Below are positions 8,549 through 24,550 of a stretch of DNA of 57,357 nucleotides, piece by piece. Positions within the stretch are counted from its first letter, which is position 1, and each line of letters opens with the position of its first letter. Origin of the DNA: an uncultured Erysipelotrichaceae bacterium (GTDB lineage: Bacteria > Bacillota_I > Bacilli_A > RF39 > UBA660); contig CACYFN010000008.1 of assembly GCA_902773675.1 (NCBI GenBank), positions 1 to 57,357 of the forward strand, written 5' to 3'. A program made the translations under genes and the position numbers. Below the pieces are notes generated by a model. That model searched no databases, was not told the DNA's origin, and saw nothing but the letters and a program-made list of their open reading frames with translations.

Positions 8549-8556
8549 GTGATTTT

Positions 8557-9293: not shown

Positions 9294-9307
9294 AAGGTAG
9301 TATTTTT

Positions 9308-9556
9308 ATGGATAATAATGATTATATTAAACGTGAGAAATTAATAATGGATATGGAATATTCCATTATTACAAATTATATAAAGTTAAGAAAAGAATCA
9401 CATATGTCACAAGAAAAATTAGCTAAGGAAACTAATGTAATTAGAACAACTATAGCTCGAATAGAAAAAAATATGAATTCACCACAACTTAAAACAATGT
9501 TAGAACTTTTAGAACCTTTAGGTTATACACTTGATATTGTACCAATAAAAAAATAA
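9308..9556 (+). CDS. XRE-family helix-turn-helix regulator
   Basis: LRKESHMSQEKLAKETNVIRTTIARIEKNMNSPQLKT. Confidence 0.85.
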   Translation: MDNNDYIKREKLIMDMEYSIITNYIKLRKESHMSQEKLAKETNVIRTTIARIEKNMNSPQLKTMLELLEPLGYTLDIVPIKK

Positions 9557-9574
9557 AAATTTATTTTAAATTAC

Positions 9575-9609
9575 TTGAGATATTGTATCACATATGATAC
9601 AATGTTTTT
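9575..9609 (+). promoter_or_regulatory. sigmaA promoter overlapped by palindromic operator
   Basis: TTGAGA(9575)-17 bp-TACAAT(9598) with extended TG; perfect inverted repeat ATTGTATCA-cata-TGATACAAT 9582-9603. Confidence 0.65.
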
Positions 9610-9621
9610 GGGTGATACAAA

Positions 9622-10059
9622 ATGATTAATAAAGTTAAAAGTGTAAAAGAAATAAGAAAATTGATTGATAAGGTTATATTACCTGGATATACTTATAAGA
9701 CAAATTTTAGTTGTGCTGAATATTTAATTGAAATTAATTTTAGATTAATAATAAAAGCTAATCTAATTAAGAAAGCTGATAAAATGATTTATGAATTTGT
9801 TTTAGATACACAATTTTTAAATGAAAATATGATTTCTTATGAAGAATTAAAAATGGTAATGGATATTATAGAAATACTTGAAGATAATAGAAATTTTACT
9901 TTGTTACGACTGAAAAAATATACTGTTTTAGAATATGAAAAAGAACAAGAAGAAAGAGAAAAAAAGAGTGAAATGATGTTAGAAGCATTGAAAAGTATGT
10001 TTATGAAAAGACTTGAAGTTAATATTAGACAAGAAGAGGAGGAAATTAATATTAAATAA
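9622..10059 (+). CDS. Hypothetical protein
   Basis: 145 aa ORF with ggtga RBS; no recognised motif. Confidence 0.6.
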   Translation: MINKVKSVKEIRKLIDKVILPGYTYKTNFSCAEYLIEINFRLIIKANLIKKADKMIYEFVLDTQFLNENMISYEELKMVMDIIEILEDNRNFTLLRLKKYTVLEYEKEQEEREKKSEMMLEALKSMFMKRLEVNIRQEEEEINIK

Positions 10060-10734
10060 TATTGAAAAATATAATGAGAATACTTTTGAAAGTATAAAAT
10101 AATTTGATGAATATGGTAATGAATTTTGGAGTGCTAGAGATTTGCAGAAAGTTTTAGAATATAAAGATTGGAGAAACTTTAAAAAAGTAATAGATAAAGC
10201 AATAGAATCTGCAAATAATAGTGTTTCAGAAAAAAAAGTTTGGGTTGTTGAAGTCAACAAGCCTATAAAAACTGGAAAAGGTAAAGAAGAATTTATTATA
10301 GATTATAAATTGTCAAGATACATATGTTATTTAATTGTACAAAATGCAGATCCAAGTAAAGAAGTTGTTGCATTAGGACAAACCTATTTTGCTGTTCAAA
10401 CTAGAAAACAAGAAATAACTTTAGAAGAATATGAATCATTATCAGATGATGATAAGAGATTGTATCAAAGAAACTTAATTAGACAAGGTAATTATACTCT
10501 TCAACATGTTGCAGCTAATGCTGGTGTTAGAAATATGGCTTAATTTCATAATGCTGGGTATAGAGATTAACGGCTGATGATATTTTTAAAAGAAAGAAAC
10601 TTCGCTATAGAGAAGATATATTAGATAATATGTGTGAGGATGAATTAGTTGCAAATTTATTTAGAATAAATCAAACAAACCAAAAACTTGAAAGAGAAAA
10701 GAGGCAATTGGATCAAAATGTAAAAGTGATTTGA
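10049..10734 (+). pseudogene. dinD: DNA-damage-inducible protein D (DinD family) pseudogene
   Basis: FESIK*FDEYGNEFWSARDLQKVLEY, YKLSRYICYLIVQNADPSKEVVALGQTYFAVQTRKQE, MA*FHNAGY, then frameshifted TADDIFKRK..YREDILDNM..ELVANLFR; stops at 10100 and 10541; ATA in place of a start after gaggagg. Confidence 0.85.
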
Positions 10735-10945
10735 AATTATATTTAAGCATTGTATCAGACTTGATATAGTGTTTTTATATGAATAAATAAAATTACGAAT
10801 AATAAATTAATAAAAAGTTTCTAATATATATTAACTTATATAAATAAGAATAATAGTTTTAAATAAATAGGAAATATAAAAAAAATATAGTATAATATAA
10901 ATGATTGATTAAATATTAAGATGAAATTTGATATGGGGTGAAATA

Positions 10946-11380
10946 ATGATAAATCGAATATTAATGGAGTTATATGATGATTATAAAAATAATAATATTG
11001 ACTCTCTTGTTGAATTTTCAAAAAAAACATTTCCATCAGATGGTACTGATAAATTATTTGTTGGATGTGTATTAATTATGTTTTCTAGGGCAAATGGTTT
11101 TAAAGCTAGATATGATTGTAATAGAGAGCAATTATTAGAAATAGTTAAATCAATAAAAGAGAAAATAGGTAATTCTAATTTATTAGCATTTTATATTAAT
11201 AGATTAAATGAAAAAAAAGGAATAAATAAGTATTTTAGGGATTTATTTGATGATGCTAATTTAGATAAATATGCTGATTTAATTATTGAATATTTGGATC
11301 AATTTAAACCAAGGTTTATTGAAGATATAAAAAGATATGAAAATAAAATAGATGATTTTATTAAAAATAATAATAATTAA
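10946..11380 (+). CDS. Hypothetical protein
   Basis: Open frame; ATG 10946 after ggggtg. Confidence 0.6.
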   Translation: MINRILMELYDDYKNNNIDSLVEFSKKTFPSDGTDKLFVGCVLIMFSRANGFKARYDCNREQLLEIVKSIKEKIGNSNLLAFYINRLNEKKGINKYFRDLFDDANLDKYADLIIEYLDQFKPRFIEDIKRYENKIDDFIKNNNN

Positions 11381-11503
11381 TATTATTTTACTGAATATTT
11401 AATTATTGATGAAATTATCTATGAATTAATAAAAAGTATTGATTAAGAATAAGGTTGTATTTTTCTTAATTATGGATAGATAGTTTATAAATGAGGCGTT
11501 AAT

Positions 11504-11983
11504 ATGGGAGTATTTATTTTTGCTTTTACTGCAACGGGAAAGACAACTGTTGCTAAAAAATATGAAAATGTTATAGATTTGGAATCGACTTATTACAAAT
11601 ATATTAATTATACTGATGATGAGAGCCTTAAAAGTACAGCGAGAAGTATAAATGAAGAATGGCCAAATAATTATTTTGAAGCATTAAAAAATGTAAAAGA
11701 TAAATATGATTATATTTTAATTGCTGATGAAATATGTAATGAATTTTTAATTAATAATAAATATGATTATTGGTATGTATATCCTAAAAGAGAATTAAAA
11801 CAAGAATATTTAGATAGGTGTAAAAAAAGAGGTAACAACGAAGAATTTATTTATTGGTATTCAAAATTATGGGATGAGTGGATAGATAAATGTGAAGAAG
11901 ATAAATGTGCATCAAAAAAAATAAAATTAAATAGTAATGAATATTTGGAAGAGAATATTTGGAAGATATACTTCCAAATTTGA
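11504..11983 (+). CDS. Small P-loop NTPase/kinase-like protein
   Basis: N-terminal AFTATGKTT Walker-A-like motif; YP..ELKQEYLDR..RGN. Confidence 0.65.
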   Translation: MGVFIFAFTATGKTTVAKKYENVIDLESTYYKYINYTDDESLKSTARSINEEWPNNYFEALKNVKDKYDYILIADEICNEFLINNKYDYWYVYPKRELKQEYLDRCKKRGNNEEFIYWYSKLWDEWIDKCEEDKCASKKIKLNSNEYLEENIWKIYFQI

Positions 11984-12128
11984 AATAAAAACTTGTGATA
12001 ATAAACGTTTAAGATTTAAAAATATAGATGCAAATCTATTGTATTAAATTATAGTTGTAGTATAAAATTTATAGAAAGGAGTTACTAATATATGTGAAAA
12101 ATCACATAATTAGATTTTTTTAGATAAT

Positions 12129-12848
12129 ATGATTAAAAATTTTAATGTTAATATTTTGGAAAAAGAGTCAAATAAATTAACTTTATCTAATTATCTAAAG
12201 TTAAAAGTTAAACAAAATATTTCTCAAGAATTACTTATAAAAATGAAAAAAAGACTTGAATTCAATTATAATCTCAATATGAAGTATTTTGATTCTTTAG
12301 ATTATAGTGAATTTGCTGAATATGTTAATAATTTTATGAAAAGAAATAAATTTGTTAGTGTAAGTGATTTAACAAAATATAAAGGTATACCAGGTATTTA
12401 TATTATGATTTTTGATGAATATAAACAGGCTTATATTGGTTTATCAGAACATGGTATTAAAGAAAGAATTCAACAACATTGGAATGAAAAAAAGGAGGCT
12501 GAAAGGCTAATTTTTGGACAAGTGTTTAATTCAATCCTTTCCGTTGATTCGTTTGGTGCTTTGGATAATACACGAATTTTTGTTAAAACTGGATGTAATC
12601 TATATAAAAATGAAGAACGTCTTGTTTATAACTTTGATAAAAGATTTCTATTGAATAGAACAGCTGGAGGTATAGGCAATATTGATACTTATACGGATGG
12701 TAAAATTTATTCACAAGTCGCTATAGTTTCAGAAATGAAGGTAAGAGATTTTACTCCTTTTATAGATGAAAAAAAATTATATGATCAGTGTAGTGAATAT
12801 GATATTATGATGTATGAAAGTATATACAAAAGAAAAGATATTGAATAA
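12129..12848 (+). CDS. GIY-YIG nuclease family protein
   Basis: PGIYIMIFDEYKQAYIGLS..IKERIQQH; later E and LLNRT.GG. Confidence 0.75.
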   Translation: MIKNFNVNILEKESNKLTLSNYLKLKVKQNISQELLIKMKKRLEFNYNLNMKYFDSLDYSEFAEYVNNFMKRNKFVSVSDLTKYKGIPGIYIMIFDEYKQAYIGLSEHGIKERIQQHWNEKKEAERLIFGQVFNSILSVDSFGALDNTRIFVKTGCNLYKNEERLVYNFDKRFLLNRTAGGIGNIDTYTDGKIYSQVAIVSEMKVRDFTPFIDEKKLYDQCSEYDIMMYESIYKRKDIE

Positions 12849-13110
12849 TATAATGGAGTCAATTATGGATATTAAAAATGAAGTATTAATATATGAATAT
12901 AAAGATGGATTAACTGGAGTTGATTTTAAATTTATAGATGAAGATGTTTGGTTAATTCAAAATCAATTAGCTAATATATATAAGATAACACAAGAAAATA
13001 TTTCAATGCATATATCAAATATTTATAAAGATAATGAATTACCAAGTTCAACTAATAAGAAAATCTTATTAGTTTAAAAAGAAGATAATCGAGATGTTAA
13101 AAAAATATAT
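12814..13110 (+). pseudogene. RhuM-family N-terminal fragment
   Basis: EDVWLIQNQLANIY..TQENISMHISNIYKDNEL..STNKKILLV*KEDNRDVK parallels ENIWLTQK...STIRKFRIVQKEGNREV of the intact copy at 14015; nonsense codon and truncation. Confidence 0.8.
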
Positions 13111-13152
13111 AATTAAAATGAATGATATTAATATAAATTGTGAGGTGAAAAT

Positions 13153-13788
13153 ATGGATTCAATAGAATATTGGGATAAAGTTGCTAAAGAAAAAACTTTT
13201 ACTACACCATTTCAATTGGAACTTTTTAAAGAATATGTAGGTAAAGATAAAAAAGTAGTAGATATTGGTTGTGGTTATGGAAGAATATTAAAGGAGTTAT
13301 TTGATAATGGGTATACTAATTTATTAGGAATTGATTTTTCTAATGAGATGATAAAACTTGCTAAAGAAAAATATTCATACATAAATTTTAAAGTTGCTAA
13401 TGGAAAAAATTTAGAATTTGAGAATAATAGTATAGATTCTATTATATTGTTTGCAGTACTTACTACTATATATGATAGTAAAAGTCAACAAGATTTGATT
13501 AAAGAAGTATATAGAGTGCTTAAAAAAGATGGTATTTTATATGTAAATGATTTTTTATTGAATGATAGTGATTTATATTTGAAACGATATAATAAATATA
13601 AAAATATATATCATGAATATGGTGTTTTTGAATCTAGTGATGGAGGAGTTTTTAAACATCATAGTGAAGAATATTTTAATGAATTATTAAGTGATTTTAA
13701 GTGTGAGAAAGAAAAAGTTTTAAAATTTAAGACTATTAATGGACATACTTCAAATGGAGTTTATTATTTAGGTAGAAAAAGAGGTTAA
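13153..13788 (+). CDS. Class I SAM-dependent methyltransferase
   Basis: VVDIGCGYGR motif I, GIDFSNEMI, EVYRVLKKDG. Confidence 0.9.
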   Translation: MDSIEYWDKVAKEKTFTTPFQLELFKEYVGKDKKVVDIGCGYGRILKELFDNGYTNLLGIDFSNEMIKLAKEKYSYINFKVANGKNLEFENNSIDSIILFAVLTTIYDSKSQQDLIKEVYRVLKKDGILYVNDFLLNDSDLYLKRYNKYKNIYHEYGVFESSDGGVFKHHSEEYFNELLSDFKCEKEKVLKFKTINGHTSNGVYYLGRKRG

Positions 13789-13793
13789 ATTTT

Positions 13794-14014
13794 AAAATAA
13801 AACTAATATAAATTGGTTAATAACAATTTAGTTAAGAACATTCTTAAAGTATTATAAAATAAAGAAAAAGTAAAAAATACATCTTTCATATTTTTTATAT
13901 AATTAGCAAAAAAATGATATAATTTATCAAAAATAGCTAAATATTTGTGATTTTTTGTTAGGGAGTTGGAAAGTGATTACAAAAGTTAAGAACATATAAA
14001 AAGAGGTGAATATA
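13794..14014 (+). repeat. Cassette junction 1 (rbgA 5' copy lacking start codon + leader)
   Basis: aaaataaaactaatataaattggttaataacaatttagttaagaaca ... tgattacaaaagttaagaacatataaaaagaggtg. Confidence 0.85.
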
Positions 14015-15073
14015 ATGAAAAAAAATGAAGTGACAATTAGATCTAGTGCAGCCGAATATTTAATTTTTATTGCTGCAACAGGTGATGATAAAGAATCAAT
14101 TGAAGTAAGATATGAAGATGAGAATATATGGTTAACACAAAAAATGCTTTCAACTTTATATAAAGTTGAAATAAACACAATTAATTATCATATTAAAAAA
14201 ATCTATAGTGATAATGAATTAAGTGAAGATTCAACTATTCGAAAATTTCGAATAGTTCAAAAAGAGGGTAATCGTGAAGTATCTAGAGATGTAGTTCATT
14301 ATAATCTTCAAATGATAATAGCTTTAGGTTTTAAGGTTGATAATGATAGAGCTGTTCAATTTAGAAAATGGGTTAATGAAATAGTTAAAGAATATACTAT
14401 TAAAGGTTTTGCTATGGATGACGATAGGCTTAAAAATGGTGGTTCTATATTAACTGAAAAATATTTTGATGAATTACTAGAAAGAATTAGAGAAATAAGG
14501 TTGTCAGAAAGAAGATTTTATCAAAAAGTAACAGATATATATGCTACAAGTATAGATTATGATAAGGATTCTAAAACAACTCTTGAGTTTTTTAAAACGG
14601 TTCAAAATAAAATGCATTATGCTGTTTCTGGAAATACTGCAGCTGAAATAATATATAATAGAGCTGATGCAAGTAAAGAACATATGGGATTAACTAATTG
14701 GATTGATGCTCCAGATGGTAAGATTATGAAAAGTGATGTTGTAATTGCTAAAAACTATCTTAGTGAAGAGGAACTGTATTCATTAAGAAGAATTGTTTCG
14801 GCATATTTAGATTTAGCAGAATCAAGAGCAGAAAGACACATACCGATGACTATGGAAGATTGGTCTAATAGACTAGATGAGTTTTTAAAATTAACTGATA
14901 GAGAAATATTAGAAGATGCTGGAAAAATTTCGCATAGAATTGCATGTGATAAAGCTGAATCTGAATTTGAAAAATATAGAATAGTACAAGATCAACTATA
15001 TATTAGTGATTTTGATAAATATATAAGTGAACTTGAAAATTTAGAAGAAAAATCTGATGAAAGTTTTAATTAA
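14015..15073 (+). CDS. rhuM: RhuM-family (virulence RhuM) DNA-binding protein
   Basis: IRSSAAEYL.F, ENIWLTQK, YNLQMIIALGFKV, QFRKW, KGFAMDDDRLK, YFDELLERIREIRLSERRFYQKVTDIYA. Confidence 0.9.
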   Translation: MKKNEVTIRSSAAEYLIFIAATGDDKESIEVRYEDENIWLTQKMLSTLYKVEINTINYHIKKIYSDNELSEDSTIRKFRIVQKEGNREVSRDVVHYNLQMIIALGFKVDNDRAVQFRKWVNEIVKEYTIKGFAMDDDRLKNGGSILTEKYFDELLERIREIRLSERRFYQKVTDIYATSIDYDKDSKTTLEFFKTVQNKMHYAVSGNTAAEIIYNRADASKEHMGLTNWIDAPDGKIMKSDVVIAKNYLSEEELYSLRRIVSAYLDLAESRAERHIPMTMEDWSNRLDEFLKLTDREILEDAGKISHRIACDKAESEFEKYRIVQDQLYISDFDKYISELENLEEKSDESFN

Positions 15074-15076
15074 ATA

Positions 15077-15198
15077 AACTATTTCAAATTTTAAAATAGT
15101 TGAACTTATAAGAAATGCTTATAATTTGAATAATATTATTTGATATCCGTCGAATTCGACGGAATATGAATTTAAAGTGTTCAAATTTGAACACTTTA
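15077..15198. repeat. Array of back-to-back palindromes
   Basis: aactatttcaaa-t-tttaaaatagtt; aacttataag-aaatg-cttataattt; aataatattatt; tccgtcgaattcgacgga; taaagtgttcaaatttgaacacttta. Confidence 0.85.
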
Positions 15199-15219
15199 TA
15201 AAAAGAGGGTGAGAAAAAT

Positions 15220-16338
15220 ATGAATAAAAATGAAAATACAAATAATCAAAAATATACAATAATATCATTTGTAGCTGTAAGCAATGAAAATGTAAATAAA
15301 TTTGTAGAAGAAGATAACAATAATAATATATTTATTAATGCATTTGATGATATATACTATTTAGTATTAGCGAATAAATCAAATTTAGACGAAAGATTAT
15401 TAGTAAATGACAATTATAGATATTTAAAGAACAGTTCAGAGATTGAAAATTTAAATAATACAATAAAAATTGATGATTTGCTAAAAAAGTATGTAGAAGA
15501 AAATGATAGATTTATTATTATACATAGTTATGCAAATGAATATGAAGAGTCATTGGCAATGAAATTATTTAAAAATATCATTAATAGTAATAAGGAATGT
15601 GTGAATGTATTTTTAATTCCGCCTACATTTACAGGTAAGGTTGATTTATTTCTAAAATTTAAGTATGAACTATTAAACTCATCAGCAAAAAATTATTATT
15701 TTGCTTGTGATGATATACTACCAAAACTTCCTTCAGATTTATCATTAGGACAGTTAAATGCATTTTTTTACAAATGTTTGTTTGAAATTGCATATAGTGT
15801 TGGAACAAATTTTAATGTAAGTGATATTTTAGATAAAATAATATCTAATGTTAAAACAAATATGAAAACTAATATATTTGAGTATGAAGATGAAGAATTT
15901 GGTAAAATAAAATTTGAATTGCTTGAGGATAGAGCGATAATTTTAGAACCTATAGTAATATTTGACAATAAAAATATCTATCCGGAAATATCATTTGATT
16001 ATAAAGGATGTGGACAAACATTAAGTGAATTTAAAAAAAATATTTCATCATATGTTAACGTTTTAAAAAATATAATAAGTAAAAAAGATGATATATTAAA
16101 TAGTTTATATGATAAAGCTTTAGAATTATATATTAATTGGGAAGAAGTAACTGAATCAAATATTGATTATGTAAAAGAGCATACTTCAATAAGTTTTATT
16201 GATATATATGATGGACAAGCAAATATTAAAGCAGCTGGATATGATAAAGATAAATTACTTTTAGGAGGTCATTTTATTGAGGCTATTATTGATAGTAATG
16301 AAATAGATTCTAAAAATATAGAATGGAATATATTTTAA
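15220..16338 (+). CDS. Hypothetical protein (cassette cargo)
   Basis: 372 aa ORF with gagggtga RBS; no confident family. Confidence 0.7.
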   Translation: MNKNENTNNQKYTIISFVAVSNENVNKFVEEDNNNNIFINAFDDIYYLVLANKSNLDERLLVNDNYRYLKNSSEIENLNNTIKIDDLLKKYVEENDRFIIIHSYANEYEESLAMKLFKNIINSNKECVNVFLIPPTFTGKVDLFLKFKYELLNSSAKNYYFACDDILPKLPSDLSLGQLNAFFYKCLFEIAYSVGTNFNVSDILDKIISNVKTNMKTNIFEYEDEEFGKIKFELLEDRAIILEPIVIFDNKNIYPEISFDYKGCGQTLSEFKKNISSYVNVLKNIISKKDDILNSLYDKALELYINWEEVTESNIDYVKEHTSISFIDIYDGQANIKAAGYDKDKLLLGGHFIEAIIDSNEIDSKNIEWNIF

Positions 16339-16355
16339 TGGATTAATAAAGTCTA

Positions 16356-16572
16356 TTGAATGAAAATAAAACTAATATAAACTGGTTGATTTCAATTTAG
16401 TTAAGAATATACGAAAGCCCCTATAAACAAAGGTGTTTCTCAAAATACATCTTGCCTGTTTTTAAGAAAAATGGCTAAAAATTGCAAAAAAATGCAAAAA
16501 ATAGGTATTTTTTTATTAAGAAGTTGCAAGTTGATTACAGAAGTTAAGAACATATAAAAAAGAGGTGAAATA
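16356..16572 (+). repeat. Cassette junction 2
   Basis: ttgaatgaaaataaaactaatataaactggttgatttcaatttagttaagaa ... ttgattacagaagttaagaacatataaaaaagaggtg. Confidence 0.9.
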
Positions 16573-17433
16573 ATGGAATTTAATTTTTTAGAGGAACAAG
16601 AAAAAATAATGTTAGCAAATGAACACATTAATGGGATAATAACTAAATATAATGAAATATTAATGAATTTAAGCGATAAAGAAAAAAATGTAATGCAACT
16701 TTATTACTATTTTAAAAAATTAGATACTTTTAAGTCGATGACACCAAAAGGTAATTATTGGGACGACAAAAGAGAAAAGTATATAAATAAAGGATTAGAA
16801 ATAATTAAAAATCTTGGAACAAAAACTTTTTCAAATATACATAGTTTAGATGAAATAAGAAAAAATGTTGATAGTTATATGAGTAATAGTGATTTATTAA
16901 ATATTATTACTAGTTTTTCTTTAGAAATAAAATCAGCATATAAAAAATATTGTGACTATGTTTATACTGTTTTACCTATATCGGGTATAAAAGAACTTGA
17001 AGAAAGCAGACATAGAGAAAATCAATATTTAAATAGTATTAATAATGGTGTATTTGCTACTGCAACAATGGAAAGTATTGAAAAATACATTGCTAGAGCT
17101 AATGTTGGTGGTATGATAGTTCATGGCAATGAAATTGAATATCCATCTAATCCATTTTTAAATATTAGTGAAGAAGGATTAACATTAATAAAACCTGTTT
17201 CAATATATTTAAGTAATGTTGATTTATTTGAACCACAATTTGATTATGAAATAGATTCTAATGGTATTCCACATTTTGTTTATGGAGGAGAATGGATTGC
17301 TCCACATGAAAAAGTTCCATGTATAGAAAAACAAACAACATATTTACCAACCTCATTCCTAGAAAATAATATAGTGTATTATCAAGAAAATGGTGAAATG
17401 ATTCAAATTAATAAAGAAATTAAAAAATTATAA
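16573..17433 (+). CDS. Hypothetical protein (cassette cargo)
   Basis: 286 aa ORF right after the leader RBS. Confidence 0.7.
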   Translation: MEFNFLEEQEKIMLANEHINGIITKYNEILMNLSDKEKNVMQLYYYFKKLDTFKSMTPKGNYWDDKREKYINKGLEIIKNLGTKTFSNIHSLDEIRKNVDSYMSNSDLLNIITSFSLEIKSAYKKYCDYVYTVLPISGIKELEESRHRENQYLNSINNGVFATATMESIEKYIARANVGGMIVHGNEIEYPSNPFLNISEEGLTLIKPVSIYLSNVDLFEPQFDYEIDSNGIPHFVYGGEWIAPHEKVPCIEKQTTYLPTSFLENNIVYYQENGEMIQINKEIKKL

Positions 17434-17450
17434 CAAAGGAGGTAATACTT

Positions 17451-17660
17451 ATGAATGAAAATAAAACTAATATAAACTGGTTGATATTGATTTAGTCTAA
17501 CTATTTTTGGACATCCCATAAAATAAGGAAAACTAATATTTTGTAATTACATTTTTTTTATGAATAATTACTAAAAAGTATTAAATAATTGTAAAAAATA
17601 GCCAAAAATAACATAGTATTTTTTACTTGGTATTGACGGTTAAACTTTTATAAAAATGAG
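17451..17660 (+). repeat. Cassette junction 3
   Basis: aaggaggt RBS, ATG AAT GAA AAT AAA ACT AAT ATA AAC TGG ttgatattgatttagtctaact ... tacttggtattgacggttaaact. Confidence 0.9.
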
Positions 17661-18599
17661 GTGATTATTTTGAATTTAATAGATACATTAAATACAAGTT
17701 ATGAATATGTTTGTGATAACTCCAGAAATGTAAAAATAAATTATGATAAAATTGATGATTTAATTGATCAGATTAATAACTCAAAAGTTGATTATTGGTT
17801 AGATCCAAATCCATATGGTTTAATGGATATGGATGTAAAAGAAATAATTAATTTCTTATTCATATATCATGCAATAGGAGATTATTGCTTTTGGGGAGAT
17901 CCTAAATGGGAAGTAAAAACAGATCTAGGTGTTATGGATGGGTCTTATGCAATAATGTACTTAATACTAAATAGATTTAAATCAAATAATAATTTTGAAA
18001 TTAGTTTTGATGAATTTAAAGAATTATTAAAAGGAAATGTAACAATTCCATTGTTAGAAGATAGATATCAAAATTTAGTAGAAATGAATAGATTTCTTAA
18101 ATCTAAAAATAAGTCATTCTATGAATTAATTAAAGAATTAAACATTGATAGTGAATTATTTGAATTTATAGTTAATAATTTAGATTATTTTAAAGATATA
18201 TCTAATTATGGAGGAAAAGAAATACTATTTTATAAAAGAGCTCAATTATTAACTTCTGATATTCTACATGTTAAAGAGAAGAAAGAAAATATTGAAGTAG
18301 ATTATTCTCATTTAATTGGTTGTGCTGATTATAAAATACCTCAAGTTATGAGATGCTATGGTATGTTAGAATTCAGTGATAGTTTAGGAGATAAAGTTGA
18401 TTCTAAAATAGAATTAAAAGAAGGTTCTGAAGAAGAAATAGAAATAAGAGCAAATACTTTAAAAGTAATAAACTATATATATGAAAGATTAGATAAAAAA
18501 TATTCTCGCATGGATATAAATGATTTTATATGGCTACTAGGTCAAAATAAATCTCAAATGACTAAACCATATCATAGAACATTAACAAAACATTATTAA
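17661..18599 (+). CDS. Queuosine salvage family protein (DUF2419/Qng1-like queuosine nucleotide N-glycosylase)
   Basis: YCFW, FYKRAQL, ADYKIPQV, EEEIEIRA, INDFIWL, PYHRTLTKHY motifs; start GTG 17661 or TTG 17670. Confidence 0.85.
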   Translation: MIILNLIDTLNTSYEYVCDNSRNVKINYDKIDDLIDQINNSKVDYWLDPNPYGLMDMDVKEIINFLFIYHAIGDYCFWGDPKWEVKTDLGVMDGSYAIMYLILNRFKSNNNFEISFDEFKELLKGNVTIPLLEDRYQNLVEMNRFLKSKNKSFYELIKELNIDSELFEFIVNNLDYFKDISNYGGKEILFYKRAQLLTSDILHVKEKKENIEVDYSHLIGCADYKIPQVMRCYGMLEFSDSLGDKVDSKIELKEGSEEEIEIRANTLKVINYIYERLDKKYSRMDINDFIWLLGQNKSQMTKPYHRTLTKHY

Positions 18600-18666
18600 G
18601 CCATATGCCCGGGCAACTATCTTGGTTAACTTGGTATTGGATTAGTCTAATTACGATAAATGACTT

Positions 18667-18703
18667 AAAAAAGGACGAAATAGTACTAAATTTCGCCTTT
18701 TTT
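18667..18703 (+). terminator. Rho-independent terminator (A-tract/T-tract, possibly bidirectional)
   Basis: aaaaaagg(a)cgaaat-agtactaa-atttcgcctttttt. Confidence 0.7.
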
Positions 18704-18704
18704 A

Positions 18705-18713
18705 TGCTATAAT
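18705..18713 (+). promoter_or_regulatory. Extended -10 promoter ahead of rbgA-copy ATG 18737
   Basis: TGcTATAAT, then ggagtga RBS and ATG. Confidence 0.6.
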
Positions 18714-18736
18714 TGAATAGAAATGGAGTGATTCCT

Positions 18737-18994
18737 ATGGATAATAGAACTAATATAAATTGGTTGATTACGATTTATAGTAACTTTTGGAGAAACTCTT
18801 TATTTATAAGGTTTTGCGAAGAATAACATCTTGCATGTTTAATATATAATATTATGAATTTTAATAAAAAATAGTCAAAAAAATATTATGAATTTTAATA
18901 AAAAATAGTTAAAAACGGCTAAAACAAGATAAAAATAACATAGGAATTATAGTGTTGATTACGACACAGTAACTCATGTAAAAGAGGTATGTTT
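18737..18994 (+). repeat. Cassette junction 4 (MDNRTNINW variant; contains 34-bp tandem duplication)
   Basis: atggataatagaactaatataaattggttgattacgatttatagtaact ... gttgattacgacacagtaact ... aaaagaggt. Confidence 0.9.
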
Positions 18995-19426
18995 ATGAAT
19001 TATAAATTGATAAAATCATCAAGTAAAGATATAGAAAAATTAATTGAATACAAAAAAAGAACAATCTTTGAATATGCTAAAGATTTACCTGATGATGAAA
19101 TTAATAAAATAAATAATTATGTAAAAAATAATGTTTTAAAATTACTTAATGATTATTCTAATATAATTGTAGATAATAAAGTAATAGGTTGTTTACTATT
19201 AACAAATAAAGACGATAACATATTGTTAGATGAAATATATATTGAACAAGAATATAGAAATAAAGGTATTGGAACAGATATAATAAAAAATGTAATAAAT
19301 GAAAATGATATAATATATTTATGGGTATATAAAGAAAACGTAAAAGCAATCTCATTGTATAAAAAACTAGGATTTAACGTGATAGATGAAACTGATTCTA
19401 GATATTATATGAAGTATAGCACGTAA
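18995..19426 (+). CDS. GNAT-family N-acetyltransferase
   Basis: EIYIEQEYRNKGIGT, LWVYKENVKAISLYKKLGF. Confidence 0.9.
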   Translation: MNYKLIKSSSKDIEKLIEYKKRTIFEYAKDLPDDEINKINNYVKNNVLKLLNDYSNIIVDNKVIGCLLLTNKDDNILLDEIYIEQEYRNKGIGTDIIKNVINENDIIYLWVYKENVKAISLYKKLGFNVIDETDSRYYMKYST

Positions 19427-19440
19427 AGGAGTTGATGTTG

Positions 19441-19670
19441 ATGAATGAAAATAAAACTAATATAAACTGGTTGAGAACAATTTAGTCAAGACCACGCCTA
19501 AATCTTTATAATATAAGGAAAAATCCCAAAATAGATCTTACATGTTTTATATAAAAATATGTTGAAATAAGTAAAAAATAGTTAAAATTGAGTATTTTTA
19601 AGTAAAAATTGCTTTGGAATTGATATGGTGAGAACGGCTAGTTAAGACCAGTAAAAAATGAGGTGAAATA
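19441..19670 (+). repeat. Cassette junction 5
   Basis: aaggag RBS, atgaatgaaaataaaactaatataaactggttgagaacaatttagtcaagacca ... tgagaacggctagttaagacca ... tgaggtg. Confidence 0.9.
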
Positions 19671-20509
19671 ATGGTAGTAAATGAAATTACAGTAAATGAT
19701 TATTTAACTAAATCAAATTTACCAGATAGTGACTACGTAATTAATCCATATGTTGGTTGTACACATGGTTGTAAGTATTGTTATGCATCTTTTATGAAAA
19801 GATTTACTGGTCATAAAGAAAACTGGGGAGAAACTGGGGAGATTTTATTGATATTAAAAGATGTAATAAACCGATCGATTTAAGAAAAATTTCAGGTAAA
19901 AATATATTTTTATCTTCAGTTACTGATTGTTATAATCAATATGAAAAAGATTTTTGTATTACAAAAAATATATTAGAACAGTTAATCGATTCAGATTGTA
20001 ATTTATCTATTTCTACAAAGTCAAAATTAATTTTAAGAGATATTGATTTATTAAAACAAATGAAAAATTTGATAGTTTGTATATCTATAAATACATTGAA
20101 TGAAAAGTTTAGAAGTGATATGGATAATGCAAGTACTATAAAAGAAAGAATGGATACATTAAAAGAATTGCACAATAATGGAATTTATACTGTATTATTT
20201 ATGTCGCCAGTCTTTCCTTATATAACTGAATGGAAAGAAATAATAGATCAGACAAAAGATTATGTTGATGAATATTGGTTTGAAAATTTAAATTTAAGGG
20301 GCAATTATAAAAAAGAAATCTTAGACTATATTAGAACTAATTATTCAGATTTATACTCAGATTATATTGATATATATTTAAAGAAAAATAATAAATATTG
20401 GAAAGATTTAGCTGAAGAAATAAATAATTATTGTAATCTAAATAACATTAATTATACAAATTATTTCTATCATAAAGAATTAGTTGAGAAGAAGAAAGAA
20501 GGTAATTAA
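19671..20509 (+). pseudogene. Radical SAM protein (spore photoproduct lyase-like family), frameshifted
   Basis: INPYVGCTHGCKYCYA (CxxxCxxC); 11-bp duplication aactggggaga at 19821-19842; removing one copy gives NWGDFIDIK..IFLSSVTDCY..ISTKSKLILRDIDLL continuous with ORF 20060-20509. Confidence 0.85.
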
Positions 20510-20981
20510 ATGATTGAAAATTTTTTAATAGAAGCAAAAAAGCAAACATACGCTAATGAAAATGCTCCAAAAATTGATAGTTCAAGATTGAATTCTAAAG
20601 ATTACGAATATAAAAAAGGTAATATGATTTATCATGATACCTATTTTGGTGGTACGAACTTTATTGGAGACGAACTTTATTGGAGAAGAAGTTGTTTATA
20701 TAGATAATCAAACATATTGGGCTATGAATTATTATGGAACAACTTTAGATGAAACACTAGGCGAAGAAGCTATGGATAAAGCTTTAAGACCAGCTCTTAT
20801 GAAAGTGGGAGAAGATGTTAACGTAATTCCTGTAAGAGGACCAAAGGAATTTATTAATGGTGAATATAAGTACACTTTTGAAATAAGAGGAGACATAAAC
20901 TGTTTTAATGGTATAGAGAGTGTATATAAAAATGATGTTAAGATATATGAATTAAGATGTACAGGTGGTTTAATTAAATAA
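20510..20981 (+). pseudogene. DUF5680-like protein, frameshifted
   Basis: FLIEAKKQTYA, YHDTYFGG, GEEVV, WAMNYYG, PVRGP, GG.IK; 16-bp duplication acgaactttattggag at 20654-20685 splits the frame. Confidence 0.8.
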
Positions 20982-21001
20982 AATTGAAGGAGTTGATCCA
21001 A

Positions 21002-21203
21002 ATGAATGAAAATAAAACTAATATAAACTGGTTGTAATTATTTGCAAAACTCCTATAAAATAAGGAAAAAACAAGTATATGCTTGTTACATAATTTAATA
21101 AAAATATAAAAATAATAATAAAAACAATTAAAAAAGTATCAAAAATGGCATAGTATTTGATACTTGGTATTGACGGTTAAAGTTTTAGTAAAGAGGTGGA
21201 AGT
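21002..21203 (+). repeat. Cassette junction 6 (left box apparently deleted)
   Basis: aaggagttgatccaa atgaatgaaaataaaactaatataaactggttg ... tacttggtattgacggttaaa ... gaggtg. Confidence 0.9.
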
Positions 21204-21689
21204 ATGCTTGATTTATCTAATATATATAAAATAACAAAACAAATAGATGAGCAATTTGCATTATATTATGGTAATGAAGAAGAAATAGTGCGAAAAAATA
21301 GATTAGAATTATTAGTTGAACTTGGTGAATTAGCTAACGAAACTAGATGTTTTAAGTATTGGTCTATAAAGCAAACAGGAGAAAAAGAAAAAGTATTGGA
21401 AGAATATATAGATTGTTTATTTATGACTTTATATTTTTCTAATATTACTGGCATATCATTAGATGAAGAATTTCCATCTTCATTAAATGGTGATATAATT
21501 GATACGTTTTTAAGTTTAAATAAATTCGCAAGTAGTATAAGTGTTGTACCTAAAAAAGAAGAAGTTAAAAAAATATTGGTAGAATTAGATCATCTTGCTA
21601 AACTACTTAATTTTACAATAGAAGATTTAGAAAGAGTTACAAAAATTAAAACTAAAATTATTGAAAGCAGATTCAATAGTGAGTATTAA
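21204..21689 (+). CDS. Dimeric (all-alpha) dUTPase
   Basis: LLVELGELANETRCFKYWS, VLEEYIDCLF. Confidence 0.85.
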   Translation: MLDLSNIYKITKQIDEQFALYYGNEEEIVRKNRLELLVELGELANETRCFKYWSIKQTGEKEKVLEEYIDCLFMTLYFSNITGISLDEEFPSSLNGDIIDTFLSLNKFASSISVVPKKEEVKKILVELDHLAKLLNFTIEDLERVTKIKTKIIESRFNSEY

Positions 21690-21705
21690 AAAGGAGTTGA
21701 TCCAA

Positions 21706-21936
21706 ATGAATGAAAATAAAACTAATATAAATTGGTTGATTACGATTTATTTAACCTCTTTAAGGAATCCTTTGTTTGTAAGGCTTTGCGGAATTTAACA
21801 TCTTGCATGTTTTATGTAATAATATGTTAAAATAGACAAAAATTAGTAAAAAATGACTATTTTTATTGAAAAATAATGGAGGAATTAGTAAGGTGATTAC
21901 ACCTTTTAACCCCCCCAGAGAAAATGAGGTGAAATA
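21706..21936 (+). repeat. Cassette junction 7
   Basis: aaggagttgatccaa atgaatgaaaataaaactaatataaattggttgattacgatttatttaacc ... tgattacaccttttaacc ... tgaggtg. Confidence 0.9.
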
Positions 21937-22521
21937 ATGAAAGATTATATATTTATAATAGGACCTAGTGGAGTTGGTAAAACAACATTTGCTAAAGGTT
22001 TATTTGAACATTATAAAGGTGTTTACTTTGAACAAAATATGATTCCTGAATTTGGTATACCTGATAATGTAGATGAAGGCAAATATGAAGAAGAAATATT
22101 GTGGGAAAGCTCTATTGAATTATTAAAATATTTCCATAATAAAGGAATTAAAAATATTATTGCTTTGGATTTTAATGATTTAAGAACTAGAGAAATACCA
22201 ACAACCTTTAAAGGTACTAATTTTATTACTCTTAAATTAATTTCATCTATTTATGAACAAAATAAGAATCAAATGTTAGAACGTGGTGAAAAAGGATTAG
22301 TTGATTTAGAGCTACTTGAAGTATCAACTAAAAAGATAATGAATAGAGAATTACTTCCTAATGAAGTATTATTAGATGTTGCTAATAAATCAAAAGAAGA
22401 AGTATTAAAAGAGGCAATTAATATTATAGATAATTATGATTGTAAATTAGATTATGAATATACAGAACCATCAAAAGAATCATTTTATTCTTGGGTTCAA
22501 AGTGATGGATTAAGGAAGTGA
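21937..22521 (+). CDS. P-loop kinase/AAA-family protein
   Basis: IIGPSGVGKTT Walker A. Confidence 0.75.
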   Translation: MKDYIFIIGPSGVGKTTFAKGLFEHYKGVYFEQNMIPEFGIPDNVDEGKYEEEILWESSIELLKYFHNKGIKNIIALDFNDLRTREIPTTFKGTNFITLKLISSIYEQNKNQMLERGEKGLVDLELLEVSTKKIMNRELLPNEVLLDVANKSKEEVLKEAINIIDNYDCKLDYEYTEPSKESFYSWVQSDGLRK

Positions 22522-22527
22522 TTTTTA

Positions 22528-23403
22528 ATGAATAATGAAGAAAAAAACTTACAAAAAACGAACATTAACTGGTATCCAGGTCATATGGCTAAAACCAAAA
22601 GATTAATAATTGAAAATATAAATTTAATAGATGTTGTATATGAGGTAATAGATGCTAGAATGCCTTATTCATCTAAGATAAAGGATATTGATAATTTTAT
22701 TAAGGATAAAAAGAGAATATTAATTATGACTAAAATTGATTTATGTGATATGGATGAAACTAATAAATGGATTAAATATTATCAAGGATTAGGTTATAAA
22801 GTAATATGTTTAAATTTAGAGGGTAATACTAATTTAGATAATTTAATTAAAATGACTACTGATATTATGAAGGAAGAGAATGAAAAAAGATTAAGTAAAG
22901 GTATGAAAGTTAGAAAGACTAGAGTACTTGTTGTTGGAATTCCAAATGTTGGTAAAAGTACTTTAATTAATAGATTAGTTGGTAAAAAGGTAGCTAATGT
23001 TGGTAATATGCCTGGTGTTACTAAAAATTTAAATTGGATAAGAATTAATGATAATATAGAACTACTTGATTCTCCTGGTATTTTATGGCCTAAATTAGAT
23101 GAAGAGAATGTTGCTTTTAATTTAGCTAGTCTGACTTCTATTAAGGAAGAAATATTACCTATTGATGAAGTTGTTATTTATATATTAAATACATTAAATA
23201 AATATTATTCTAATATATTAAAAGAAAGATATGGTATTGATTATATTAGTGATGATATAGAAGAAACTTTAGAAAGTATTGGTAGAATGAGAGGTTGTCT
23301 TGTACGTGGTGGGGTAGTTGATTATGATAAAGTTTATAGTGTTGTTATGAATGATATAAAAAGTGGATTAGTGAAAGGAATTACGTTTGATAGATATGAA
23401 TAA
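22528..23403 (+). CDS. rbgA: Ribosome biogenesis GTPase RbgA/YlqF
   Basis: INWYPGHMAK, DARMP.SS, TKID, GIPNVGKSTLIN, PGVTK, LLDSPGILWP. Confidence 0.97.
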   Translation: MNNEEKNLQKTNINWYPGHMAKTKRLIIENINLIDVVYEVIDARMPYSSKIKDIDNFIKDKKRILIMTKIDLCDMDETNKWIKYYQGLGYKVICLNLEGNTNLDNLIKMTTDIMKEENEKRLSKGMKVRKTRVLVVGIPNVGKSTLINRLVGKKVANVGNMPGVTKNLNWIRINDNIELLDSPGILWPKLDEENVAFNLASLTSIKEEILPIDEVVIYILNTLNKYYSNILKERYGIDYISDDIEETLESIGRMRGCLVRGGVVDYDKVYSVVMNDIKSGLVKGITFDRYE

Positions 23404-23770: not shown

Positions 23771-24550
23771 ATGCTTAAAGATAATGGCTTTAAACTTGGT
23801 GTTTATGATTATTTTTGTAAGAGTGTTAATGATAGTAGAAAAGGTGTTTTCTTAATTACTGATAAACAGAGTGTTTTTTATTCACAAGTAGAAGGTGACT
23901 ATTATACACATGATGAAATTCGAATTGAAATTGAAAAACTTATTTATCCTAATAAAAATATTAATGGATTTGATGAGATAGATCATAATAATATATTTAT
24001 TGCTTCTTTAGGACATGAATTACTTGTAGAGATACCTGATGGTAGATTAAGTTATTCAAAATTTTTACTATTTTTAAATGTATTAAGAGAAATGGATAGG
24101 TTTAATAGTAAAAAATTGAATATTAAAAAAGTAGAGTTATTAATATTAAAACGTGGTGGAACTATTTATAAGAGTGAAAAGCCTAATATGGATGATGTTA
24201 TATTTGAATTAAAAAAGTTGATAGTACACGATACTAATTTAGAAGATGAGAAAATAATTGGAAATACATTAGATAAAGATACTATTATTAATTGTATAAA
24301 GTATCAAATTGATTTGGAAAGCTGTGAGTGTTTAAGTGATTTAGATGTATCTTTAAAAAGATGTGAAAAATATAATAATGATAATTATTATTATCCATAT
24401 TTTAAAGAGATTTTTAGTGATTATGAGAGTACTAAAAGGATATTTGATGAATTAGAAAATAAATATGATGAAGATACACCTATAACAAATATTACATATG
24501 ATAATATTTTGGATAAATTAAATAGTTTTAGTAGTGTTAAAATACATTAA
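23771..24550 (+). CDS. Hypothetical protein
   Basis: 259 aa ORF with gggtga RBS between mrnC and rlmB. Confidence 0.65.
   Translation: MLKDNGFKLGVYDYFCKSVNDSRKGVFLITDKQSVFYSQVEGDYYTHDEIRIEIEKLIYPNKNINGFDEIDHNNIFIASLGHELLVEIPDGRLSYSKFLLFLNVLREMDRFNSKKLNIKKVELLILKRGGTIYKSEKPNMDDVIFELKKLIVHDTNLEDEKIIGNTLDKDTIINCIKYQIDLESCECLSDLDVSLKRCEKYNNDNYYYPYFKEIFSDYESTKRIFDELENKYDEDTPITNITYDNILDKLNSFSSVKIH

Follow-up and report, generated by a model that had tools for sequence, protein, structure and literature searches.

Why should a bacterial gene be preceded by a series of copies of its own first codons? This question is raised by rbgA (ylqF), the gene of a ribosome-biogenesis GTPase, in a contig of an uncultured Erysipelotrichaceae bacterium (GTDB lineage Bacteria; Bacillota_I; Bacilli_A; RF39; UBA660; GenBank assembly GCA_902773675.1, contig CACYFN010000008.1, positions 1 to 57,357 of the forward strand). 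We call this whole stretch of 57,357 nucleotides (nt) the window. A sequence-only reading of it had seen an integron-like cassette array stacked into the 5′ end of rbgA between positions 13794 and 22590. We consider it likely that positions 8548-22572 are an accretion array of small mobile cassettes, which were site-specifically recombined into the ..INW codons of rbgA, with large serine recombinases (LSRs) as the likely enzymes. The seven junctions of the earlier reading are real, but the array starts further upstream than it had assumed, at 8548.

The junctions are marked by a 16-mer, ACTAATATAAAYTGGT, which has seven exact matches in the window, all on the plus strand (at 13802, 16371, 17466, 18749, 19456, 21017 and 21721), compared with a mean of 0.72 matches in shuffled versions of the window, none of 100 of which reached seven. 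The positions given in the sequence-only reading (13794 etc.) are the starts of slightly longer shared segments around these copies, and the repeats are present as it had listed them. As it had also observed, five of the copies (17466, 18749, 19456, 21017 and 21721) are preceded by a ribosome-binding site (RBS) and an ATG and encode the peptide MNENKTNINW or MDNRTNINW; at 13802 and 16371 the RBS and the ATG have been lost. The rbgA gene itself (22528-23403; TIGR03596 YlqF, 334 bits versus a cut-off of 208) was correctly told apart from these copies. It reads ..QKTNINW/YPGHM, and its AAAACGAACATTAACTGG at 22555-22572 encodes the same peptide as the junction copies with three synonymous bases different. 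All seven copies part from rbgA after TGGT and continue, again as described, into a related leader of 172-225 nt, which ends in AAAAGAGGTG-N5-ATG and is followed by one or two co-oriented open reading frames (ORFs) per unit. Outside the array, neither ACTAATATAAAYTGGT nor the leader was found in the organism's own genome, a metagenome-assembled genome (MAG) of 1.46 Mb in 94 contigs with 24.8% G+C and 92% completeness.

The arrangement is not confined to this organism. For the family we used a sample of 201 genomes, one per genus, and for a broader scan of genome contigs one genome per species. Exact matches to ACTAATATAAAYTGGT occur in 24 of the 201 genomes, each belonging to another genus, as opposed to one match with the reversed control pattern, and the broader scan gave at least 119 junction-bearing MAG stretches, titled Bacilli, Erysipelotrichaceae, Tenericutes, Bacillales etc. 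and mostly derived from ruminant and other gut samples. The loci of the ACTAATATAAAYTGGT-positive genomes are arrays of two to six junctions ending in rbgA; a degenerate junction pattern occurs at 18 sites in genome G201, namely 16 within a single array, another elsewhere and rbgA itself, and in 27 places, spread over five contigs, in genome G202.

Altogether, 310 distinct junction contexts were collected, of which 250 are of the cassette type, 40 are joined to rbgA and 20 are others, some of them chance matches. Consecutive junctions enclose 195 distinct cassettes, the lengths of which range over 261-4917 bp with a median of 894. If ORFs of at least 60 aa on the array strand are counted, 134 of the 195 have exactly one; the longest ORF lies on that strand in 190, and the gap between the cargo stop codon and the ATG of the following rbgA start has a median of 14 nt (in 154 of the 187 measured). 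The model of the sequence-only reading, in which each unit consists of a leader, cargo and a replacement rbgA 5′ end, is supported by this recurrence of the same anatomy in 195 cassettes. The cargo is very diverse: 277 ORFs of at least 70 aa form 190 clusters at 40% identity, 137 of which are singletons. Pfam assignments in 149 cargo representatives were led by GNAT acetyltransferases (17) and S-adenosylmethionine (SAM) methyltransferases (6), followed by NUDIX, HAD and peptidase S51 (4 each) and by ASCH and helix-turn-helix proteins (3 each). In all, 95 families were matched; among the 25 listed there is no conjugation, relaxase or recombinase family, a 412-aa LSR of genome G039 having been excluded from the scan beforehand.

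In relatives, the working start of rbgA is a cassette end letter for letter, AAGGAGTTGATCCAAATGAATGAAAATAAAACTAATATAAAYTGG/TATCCAGGTCATATG (G042, G039, G068, G086, G056, G013, G132, G080 and others), and the unusual rbgA start of the window, MNNEEKNLQKTNINW, lies stranded at internal junctions in G039, G086, G201 and G202. The working start of one genome is hence the sequence that is stranded in others, in agreement with the earlier proposal that integration restores rbgA and leaves the previous 5′ end behind. Two genomes have an empty site: in G172, lepB is directly followed by rbgA, and in G095 a terminator and a promoter precede it. Both carry a native ATG..AAAACTAATATAAACTGG start, and the cassette end therefore copies the family's own rbgA start.

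In line with the cassette turnover that the sequence-only reading had envisaged, the gene content upstream of rbgA is wholly different between relatives, and single cassettes recur in other genomes and at other positions. Where cassettes of different species share 94-99% identity, the alignment sets in with the base that follows TGG and extends as far as the next TGG, so that the breakpoints lie at the core, as it had proposed. The identities are 99.0% over 1100 of 1100 nt, 98.1% over 840 of 840 and over 887 of 887, 97.8% over 849 of 849 (G039 versus G201) and 96.7% over 1933 of 1933, and the rbgA bodies of the genomes that share cassettes are 64-74% identical. These alignments show that whole cassettes are transferred horizontally, with their breakpoints at the core. 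A 59-mer from the rbgA body of the window species found no stretch in one scan of metagenome contigs.

The position of the crossover can be narrowed down with the help of an integrative and conjugative element (ICE), described below, that occupies the same site in G201 and G202. Its left junction, ..AACTG/TTCGATAGG.., lies behind two different upstream cassettes. Because it diverges right after TG, the crossover must be placed on the TG in the Trp codon or to its left. Thus, of the divergence after AAYTGGT in the sequence-only reading, it holds that all copies leave rbgA there, but not that the exchange itself takes place at this point. The base preceding the TG is either C or T, which makes TG the best candidate for a central dinucleotide, and we infer that it is the crossover dinucleotide. 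The arm of the ICE type together with Box L, the opening block of the cassette leader, forms ATCAAC-TG-GTTGAT, a 6+2+6 palindrome; in most cassettes the sequence is ATAAAY-TG-GTTGAT, with five of six pairs. A palindromic core would explain the invariant TTGAT with which Box L opens. With a central dinucleotide flanked by imperfect inverted repeats, the core looks, by its sequence, like a serine recombinase site.

The leader consensus, drawn from the 250 cassette-type contexts, begins with Box L (TTGAT.ac.ATTTA), a palindrome (CCTTATAAAATAAGG-like) and TCTTGCATGTTTT, and continues with an A-rich tract containing a TAAAAT-like block, TAGGAATT, Box R and AAAAGAGGTGA. A promoter-like block, TCTTGCATG..(TG)nTAAAAT-like, is conserved in it. 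A scan of the window for consensus promoters and terminators gave 87 sites versus 81.7 expected, which is uninformative in such AT-rich DNA, and it is therefore the conservation of the block that suggests a promoter in the leader. Box L and Box R occur in several types (e.g., TTGATTACG..AGTAAC, TTGGCTTGT..GCGAC, TTGAGAAC..TCAAGACC) and the two boxes of one leader co-vary: true pairs had a mean local score of 9.39, versus 6.26 ± 0.135 for permuted pairs (204 leaders, 200 permutations, permuted maximum 6.63), a difference that is inflated by the shared descent of the leaders. In short cassettes, the two boxes are fused and the leader is gone. An attenuator-like pairing of Box L and Box R with a common complementary segment was considered and dropped, as no complementary stretch was seen on reading the leaders. 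An origin of the short leaderless cassettes by TG-TG site-specific deletion is unlikely, given that they keep the ATTTA specific to Box L.

Leader and cargo do not always travel together. In 10 pairs of cassettes both are at least 93% identical, in another 10 the leader is at least 93% identical and the cargo unrelated, and in 17 the cargo is at least 93% identical and the leaders are less than 80% identical. The breaks fall at the RBS or the ATG. Leader and cargo thus reassort as separate modules, and it is this modularity that interests us most, since it touches on the way in which cassettes come into being.

Two further features of the leader region were seen. The stranded rbgA starts (16371, 17466, 19456 and many loci) remain short ORFs, which in several box types end at the TAG of a conserved Box L ATTTAG (e.g., MNENKTNINWLISI followed by the stop) and in other box types continue for ~30 codons. 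There is also a minority box type, TA...CCGACTTATG.AAAC (L024 at ~6644, L057 at ~2185, L113 at ~7460, L125 at ~6211, L124 at ~1850, L117 at ~158), which resembles the rbgA sequence past the Trp codon (TATCCAGGTCATATGGCTAAAAC); in L117, the cassette opens with TATCCAGGAC and the RBS follows directly. These minority boxes look like copies of the attB right arm inside cassettes.

Which enzyme could act at this site? A scan of 30 window ORFs between 338 and 25258 revealed no recombinase family. The sequence-only reading was right in that there is no recombinase near the array; for mobilization in trans, which it had deduced from this, candidates are available in the form of LSRs on the elements of relatives. 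Immediately upstream of rbgA, genomes G201, G202, G161 and G204 carry a pair of LSRs of ~566 and ~522 aa, which are 38% identical to each other and have Resolvase, Recombinase and zinc-ribbon domains; the second LSR of the pair stops ~45 nt before a third type of rbgA start, MSNTNENQSVAKTNINW. In G201, the two genes are at L162 14807-16507 and 16477-18045. This arrangement is also found at rbgA in G156, G098, G028 and G018, and with a single LSR in G182 and G063. At 10 of 11 loci, a non-random choice from the top matches of a family-wide search, the distance from the end of an LSR of this clade to the start of rbgA is 17-70 nt, the exception being G187. In G039, two LSRs of the clade lie inside the array, one of them (412 aa, L022 5779-7017, with a homologue in G063) in a 4.9-kb unit bounded by junctions. 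The family-wide search with the ~522-aa LSR (E ≤ 1e-40) matched 121 of the 201 genomes, a figure that is due to generic LSRs, which are common at 33-38% identity, and that is therefore no measure of association.

In G201, the element is an ICE of ~38.7 kb between the 16-junction array and rbgA. It begins with a ParB-like gene and encodes an adhesin, a sortase, a VirB4-like ATPase, an M23 hydrolase, a MobL relaxase and a coupling protein; it also has a type I restriction-modification (R-M) system, which includes an hsdS shufflon, and the LSR pair. On the left, the ICEs of G201, G202 and G161 begin with a leader that contains both Box L and Box R, as cassettes do. The ~566-aa LSRs of G201 and G202 are 97.7% identical and their rbgA bodies 66%. 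A left end of type H, sought in five genomes, was found in G201 and G202 only, whose ICEs are nearly identical and thus offer no independent evidence for arm-type specificity; a search for the A′-type leader in five LSR-bearing genomes gave one match, in G098, and was too type-specific to be useful. As both the ends and the position are shared with the LSR elements, we infer that the LSRs of these elements act on the cassettes.

Some details of these elements were recorded in passing. In the G201 ICE (L162 8146-11601), opposed hsdS genes flank a gene for a 321-aa tyrosine recombinase, beside hsdR and hsdM, a set of genes that forms a phase-variable type I restriction shufflon among the cargo of the ICE. 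Three small conserved genes (238, 107 and 145 aa) always precede the LSR pair (L162 12127-14076 and the equivalents in L163, L164 and L174). None has a Pfam family, the 145-aa product has a weak ArpU-like match, and they are candidates for regulators or directionality factors.

Taken together, we propose the following explanation. A complete cassette consists of a leader of ~200 nt, usually one ORF and, ~14 nt later, an RBS and the ATG..KTNINW start of rbgA, the order within the leader being Box L (TTGAT..ATTTA..), palindrome, promoter-like TCTTGCATG.. block, A-rich tract, Box R (a repeat of Box L that co-varies with it) and, last, a strong RBS. By recombination at the TG in the Trp codon, the incoming rbgA start would be joined to the resident rbgA body, and the essential gene would stay intact because the cassette supplies its start. 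The previous start would be stranded upstream; as this would happen at each event, the array should grow at its rbgA-proximal end and decay at its distal end, which is the order of events that we assume for the window. The cassettes bring no recombinase, and the likeliest enzymes would be the LSRs, as a pair of ~566 and ~522 aa or singly with ~411 aa, borne in related genomes by ICEs and smaller units at this exact site. These elements end in the same rbgA start and, in the three genomes where a left end was found, begin with the same kind of leader. Between genera, cassettes may move as circles or, more simply, together with such an element by cis-mobilization.

Laid out along these lines, the window contains the following features:

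7922-8548, plus strand: HAD-family hydrolase gene (Pfam HAD_2), the last gene before the array
8549-13793, plus strand: distal, older part of the array, with co-oriented small cargo genes and decayed junctions and leaders
distal part, plus strand: p8557, with a similar ORF in a cassette of L117 (judged from the first residues only)
8958-9293, plus strand: ASCH gene (Pfam), 77-79% identical to L150 and L115
~9310-9557, plus strand: small helix-turn-helix-like ORF, labelled from reading its translation
distal part, plus strand: p9622, a cargo gene
from 10142, plus strand: broken Bro-N gene (Pfam)
distal part, plus strand: p10928, 85% identical in nt to the cargo of the first cassette of the G201 array
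distal part, plus strand: p11504, 83-84% identical to between-junction cassettes in G039 and G170
12129-12848, plus strand: GIY-YIG gene (Pfam)
12814-13077, plus strand: RhuM N-terminal fragment (Pfam)
13153-13788, plus strand: SAM methyltransferase gene (Pfam)
13802-13817, plus strand: junction 1, an rbgA 5′ stub without RBS and ATG; core TG at 13814-13815
13817-16385, plus strand: cassette 1, with leader 13817-14005, RhuM-family gene 14006-15073, unknown gene 15220-16338 and a degenerate stub of the rbgA start
16386-17480, plus strand: cassette 2, with leader 16386-16572, unknown 286-aa gene 16573-17433 and RBS+ATG..TNINW
17481-18763, plus strand: cassette 3, with leader 17481-17660, queuosine-salvage (Q_salvage) gene 17661-18599 and the rbgA start MDNRTNINW
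18764-19470, plus strand: cassette 4, with leader 18764-18988 and GNAT acetyltransferase gene 18989-19426
19471-21031, plus strand: cassette 5, with leader 19471-19670, a split radical-SAM gene and a frameshifted DUF5680 gene 20510-20981
21032-21735, plus strand: cassette 6, with leader 21032-21203 (Box L shortened by ~16 nt) and dUTPase_2 gene 21204-21689
21736-22572, plus strand: cassette 7, the proximal one, with leader 21736-21936, P-loop kinase-like gene 21937-22521 and the rbgA 5′ end in use
22528-23403, plus strand: rbgA (ylqF), ribosome-biogenesis GTPase (TIGR03596)

The array of the window is thus 14 kb long; seven of its units are intact, about ten have decayed, and no recombinase resides in it. 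Its left boundary is the HAD gene, the stop codon of which overlaps the RBS of the first cargo gene and which matches other genomes at only 73-74% (L147, L153) at the nt level, the range of rbgA bodies. The genes between 8548 and 13794 have homologues of 77-85% nt identity in array-bearing loci, three of them placed inside cassettes. A hidden Markov model (HMM) of the leader gave no match in 8549-13793 and no junction was detectable there, and two of the genes, Bro-N and the RhuM N-terminus, are fragments. That the distal genes are cassette-like and yet lack leaders and junctions, and that two are fragmented, fits growth at the rbgA-proximal end and decay at the distal one. A comparable trace may be present in G201 (L160 ~1900-1925), where a Box-L-like TTGATTACGGTTTATAGTAAC lies ~110 nt upstream of the first rbgA-start copy of the array with no preceding TGG; it may be the relic of a still older unit.

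Several of the intact cassettes have close relatives elsewhere. If its two junctions are included (17426-18768), cassette 3 shares 94.4% identity over 1345 nt with the cassette that comes last in the G201 array (L160 15093-16432), and the rbgA bodies of the two genomes are 70% identical; between its Q_salvage gene and its rbgA start lies a terminator-like and promoter-like stretch. The GNAT protein of cassette 4 is 82-83% identical in G042 and G170, where its gene stands behind another leader type, and 75% identical in G021. The leader of this cassette has a direct duplication of ~27 nt (ATATTATGAATTTTAATAAAAAATAGT twice), which makes it the longest in the array at 225 nt and at which the leader HMM splits. 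Cassette 5 is 95.5% identical end to end to L110 51-1585, the copy there being 27 nt shorter. Its radical-SAM gene is split (19671-19883 and 20060-20509) and its DUF5680 gene frameshifted (20510-20707 and 20634-20981); as the contigs of all four sequencing runs used, out of twenty, lack 11 nt at 19820 and the L110 copy is shorter, these breaks may be specific to this strain or this assembly.

Cassette 7 is presumably the newest unit. It ends with an RBS, the ATG at 22528, ..KTNINW and the TGG at 22570-22572; its cargo matches G039 L022 3185-3956 with 96% identity at the protein and 89% at the nt level, and there an end of the cassette-7 type lies stranded before another cassette. When the window's rbgA is compared with that of other genomes, homology begins at 22555, and the gene body from 22573 on is vertically inherited. 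In the summed contigs of the four runs, all from bovine gut, depth over the leaders and junctions of cassettes 6 and 7 (20823-22024) is ~10-fold higher than over neighbouring genes, which suggests that many organisms in those gut communities carry these leader sequences. Downstream of rbgA, a 259-aa ORF without Pfam family (23771-24550) lies between the genes for mini-RNase III and a SpoU-type methyltransferase.

A number of observations speak against the view that LSRs recombined these cassettes into rbgA. The organism's own genome contains five tyrosine and three large serine recombinases elsewhere, and none of them belongs to the rbgA-site clade, the best matches in this 92% complete genome being 22-28% identical; a recombinase beside the same junction motif, for which the sequence-only reading had suggested a search, is found in relatives, but not in this genome. 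Most arrays end directly in rbgA with no recombinase nearby, so that activity there would, if there is any, be transient or historical, and G042, with a six-junction array, has no serine recombinase in its genome. In a scan with PF00589, two Xer-like proteins were the only recombinases common to ten relatives and the own genome. Several Box L types occur in a single array, which is awkward for one sequence-specific LSR, and simple integration and excision give no account of the reassortment of leader and cargo at the RBS or ATG. LSRs normally do not recombine attP-like sites with each other. Finally, no recombination event was observed in the Logan contigs of the four runs, which are broken at the junction and leader repeats and gave no usable circle or deletion joints; the joints that were listed have sides of 20-38 nt and could stem from the cassettes of other organisms.

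How well do other explanations fare? The units could be passive debris, i.e., decayed cis-mobilizable elements (CIMEs) left behind by tandem ICEs or integrative and mobilizable elements (IMEs) at rbgA, random deletion derivatives without any cassette system. Tandem accretion and decay is the standard route to att-flanked units lacking a recombinase (PMC5704250), ICEs do use the rbgA site in relatives, and the distal part of the window's array is visibly decaying. We nevertheless think this unlikely, since the random deletion of 40-kb ICEs would not yield 195 distinct units of one tight design (leader, RBS, usually a single ORF, 14-nt gap, rbgA start), with cargo so diverse that 137 of 190 clusters are singletons, with none of the conjugation, relaxase or recombinase families among the listed cargo families, and with identical leaders before unrelated cargo and vice versa. 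A hotspot of homologous recombination, in which genes brought in by transformation or conjugation are exchanged by RecA-type recombination between conserved flanks, would do without a site-specific recombinase, in keeping with the lack of a cognate enzyme in most array genomes. Some homology is on offer, with 30-45 nt of junction identity and a leader of ~200 nt at 75-90%, and the reassortment of leader and cargo as well as the short forms with fused boxes look as if made by homologous recombination or slippage. Such a mechanism gives no account of the rbgA-start copy that ends every unit, of the dyad-symmetric core at the exact point of divergence, or of serine-recombinase ICEs at the same base; it probably contributes to the shuffling, but as the sole explanation it is improbable.

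It is more doubtful still that another recombinase is responsible, be it the two ubiquitous Xer-like tyrosine recombinases, in the manner of integrative mobile elements exploiting Xer (IMEX) or pdif modules, or an unrecognized enzyme, with the LSR elements merely sharing the target. The Xer-like genes (~290-310 aa) are the only recombinases in all array genomes checked, and streptococcal ICEs use the same part of rbgA with tyrosine integrases (PMC4701971 and PMC8571831). However, the LSR elements share more than the target with the cassettes, namely both ends, leader and rbgA start, and a 6+2+6 palindrome around a dinucleotide fits a serine recombinase. An assembly artefact, with repeats collapsed or mis-chained in a short-read MAG, was named by the sequence-only reading among the things that would undo its model. 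The MAG is in 94 contigs, and the unitig-like contigs of other runs break at each junction, so that the order of the cassettes in the window is provisional. Against this, the same architecture is seen again in more than 100 contigs that were assembled independently, in MAGs of many record series, one of them 204 kb long, and whole cassettes are conserved end to end between contigs, which makes an artefact very improbable as the source of the array. We therefore return to site-specific accretion at rbgA, with LSRs as the probable enzymes, and ask to which known system it is closest.

With integrons, to which the sequence-only reading had likened the locus, the rbgA arrays share many small, mostly single-ORF, co-oriented and recombinase-less cassettes at one chromosomal site (134 and 190 of the 195 cassettes for single ORFs and for orientation, respectively), very diverse cargo, a newest cassette by the insertion point and cassettes common to distant hosts. 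The cargo, rich in acetyltransferases, also matches the profile of integron cassettes. Nevertheless, an integron in the proper sense was rejected: there is no IntI, the best score with TIGR02249 in the own genome being 89.9 bits versus a cut-off of 265, there is no attC, which in integrons is an imperfect inverted repeat that stands 3′ in each cassette and folds into a single-strand hairpin, and the repeated unit is 5′ of the ORF. When the bottom strands of two of the seven leaders were folded as single-stranded DNA, they gave local hairpins only (z -2.45 and -0.58) and no end-to-end pairing. Rfam and tRNA/tmRNA scans of the window were empty, so that the leader belongs to no known RNA family and is no att site of the tRNA type. 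In contrast to integron cassettes, those at rbgA are inserted inside an essential gene, the start of which each of them replaces, and each brings a leader with a promoter-like block, whereas integron cassettes are promoterless and depend on a common Pc promoter; the candidate enzyme is a serine recombinase, whereas that of integrons is a tyrosine recombinase. The host differs as well, being of a Gram-positive-type lineage, and complete integrons were lacking in all Firmicutes and Tenericutes genomes of a 2016 survey (PMC4889954). The integron comparison thus holds for the single-ORF co-oriented array, but accretion of the CIME or staphylococcal type is at least as close.

Tandem accretion as in ICESt1 and ICESt3 likewise stacks att-flanked units without integration or transfer genes at the site of an ICE, and as in CIMEs the rbgA units are bounded by direct repeats of att and duplicate the target gene's end. 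The cognate autonomous element is found at the same att site in relatives (10 of 11 loci), and none was found in the own genome. Described CIMEs, however, occur in small numbers at a site, measure several kb and can be seen to be decayed ICEs or IMEs, whereas there are up to 16-27 rbgA units per genome, with a uniform design, a median of 894 bp and a modular exchange of leader and cargo. Their uniform design and the absence of ICE gene remnants speak against an origin by ICE or IME decay. That recombinase-less CIMEs accrete in tandem and are transferred together with an ICE is established (PMC5704250).

The staphylococcal cassette chromosome (SCC) uses the ccrAB serine recombinase pair at the 3′ end of rlmH/orfX and forms composites of 10-30-kb islands with ccr-less pseudo-SCC units. 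Here, too, an adjacent LSR pair resides on an element whose target is one end of a conserved gene with a ribosome-related role, units without a recombinase are joined into tandem composites and have the same direct repeat at their borders, and type I R-M is possible cargo. Orthology of the LSRs to the Ccr proteins was rejected, as the pair scored 94 and 92 bits with NF047343 (cut-off 900) and 69 and 56 bits with NF047344 (cut-off 700). The target also differs, being the rbgA 5′ end and not the rlmH 3′ end, and at rbgA the large element is conjugative and the small units are single-gene cassettes.

ICEs of the Tn5253/Tn5252 type use the same gene region and integrate in the rbgA 5′ end with the coding sequence restored; their insertion point is presumably the homologous ..W(F/Y)PGHM position of the streptococcal RbgA N-terminus. 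Tn5253 integrates after nt 20 of the rbgA coding sequence, which is restored by a duplicated att (PMC8571831), and streptococcal ICEs at the rbgA 5′ end use tyrosine integrases (PMC4701971). Such ICEs are ~65 kb long and no cassette arrays are described for them, and in contrast to them the enzymes at the att end of the rbgA-site elements of the relatives are serine recombinases; the G201 element has just one tyrosine recombinase, located between two hsdS genes. The ssrA-specific islands of Dehalococcoides (PMC3146451) are reportedly likewise site-specific at a single-copy conserved gene, and the terms tandem and serine recombinase occur there. They differ in being large islands at the 3′ end of the tmRNA gene, not single-gene cassettes at the 5′ end of a protein gene.

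Full-text literature searches, a scope that leaves aside subscription journals and supplements, found no description of cassette arrays at rbgA or of a cassette platform driven by a serine recombinase, and the system, which the sequence-only reading did not recognize as a described one, is apparently undescribed so far. What we see is a real and widespread site-specific accretion of the CIME or SCC kind that works like an integron. Going further, we tentatively put forward that it is a functional analogue of the integron, arisen independently in low-GC gut Bacilli with reduced genomes, i.e., a dedicated LSR-driven cassette platform with rbgA as its capture site. Under this extension, which we would stop short of calling probable, each cassette brings its own leader and a separate mechanism places ORFs between the leader and the rbgA-start module, as suggested by the reassortment of leader and cargo at the RBS or ATG and by the co-variation of Box L and Box R.

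To our knowledge, no platform other than the integron has been well described in which single-gene cassettes are stockpiled and shuffled. A second and mechanistically unrelated one would, if true, mean that cassette stockpiling evolved more than once. As leader, ORF and gene-start modules reassort at visible breakpoints, the rbgA arrays offer a tractable route to how cassettes are made, and their natural serine-recombinase att sites with several arm types may be useful in genome engineering. For the bacteria themselves, an essential gene that is rebuilt at each insertion would provide an array site that the host cannot lose. In a large family of uncultured Bacilli of ruminant and other guts, roughly one genus in eight has the arrays, which would, if our reading is true, explain how bacteria with genomes of 0.8-1.6 Mb maintain a flexible gene pool.

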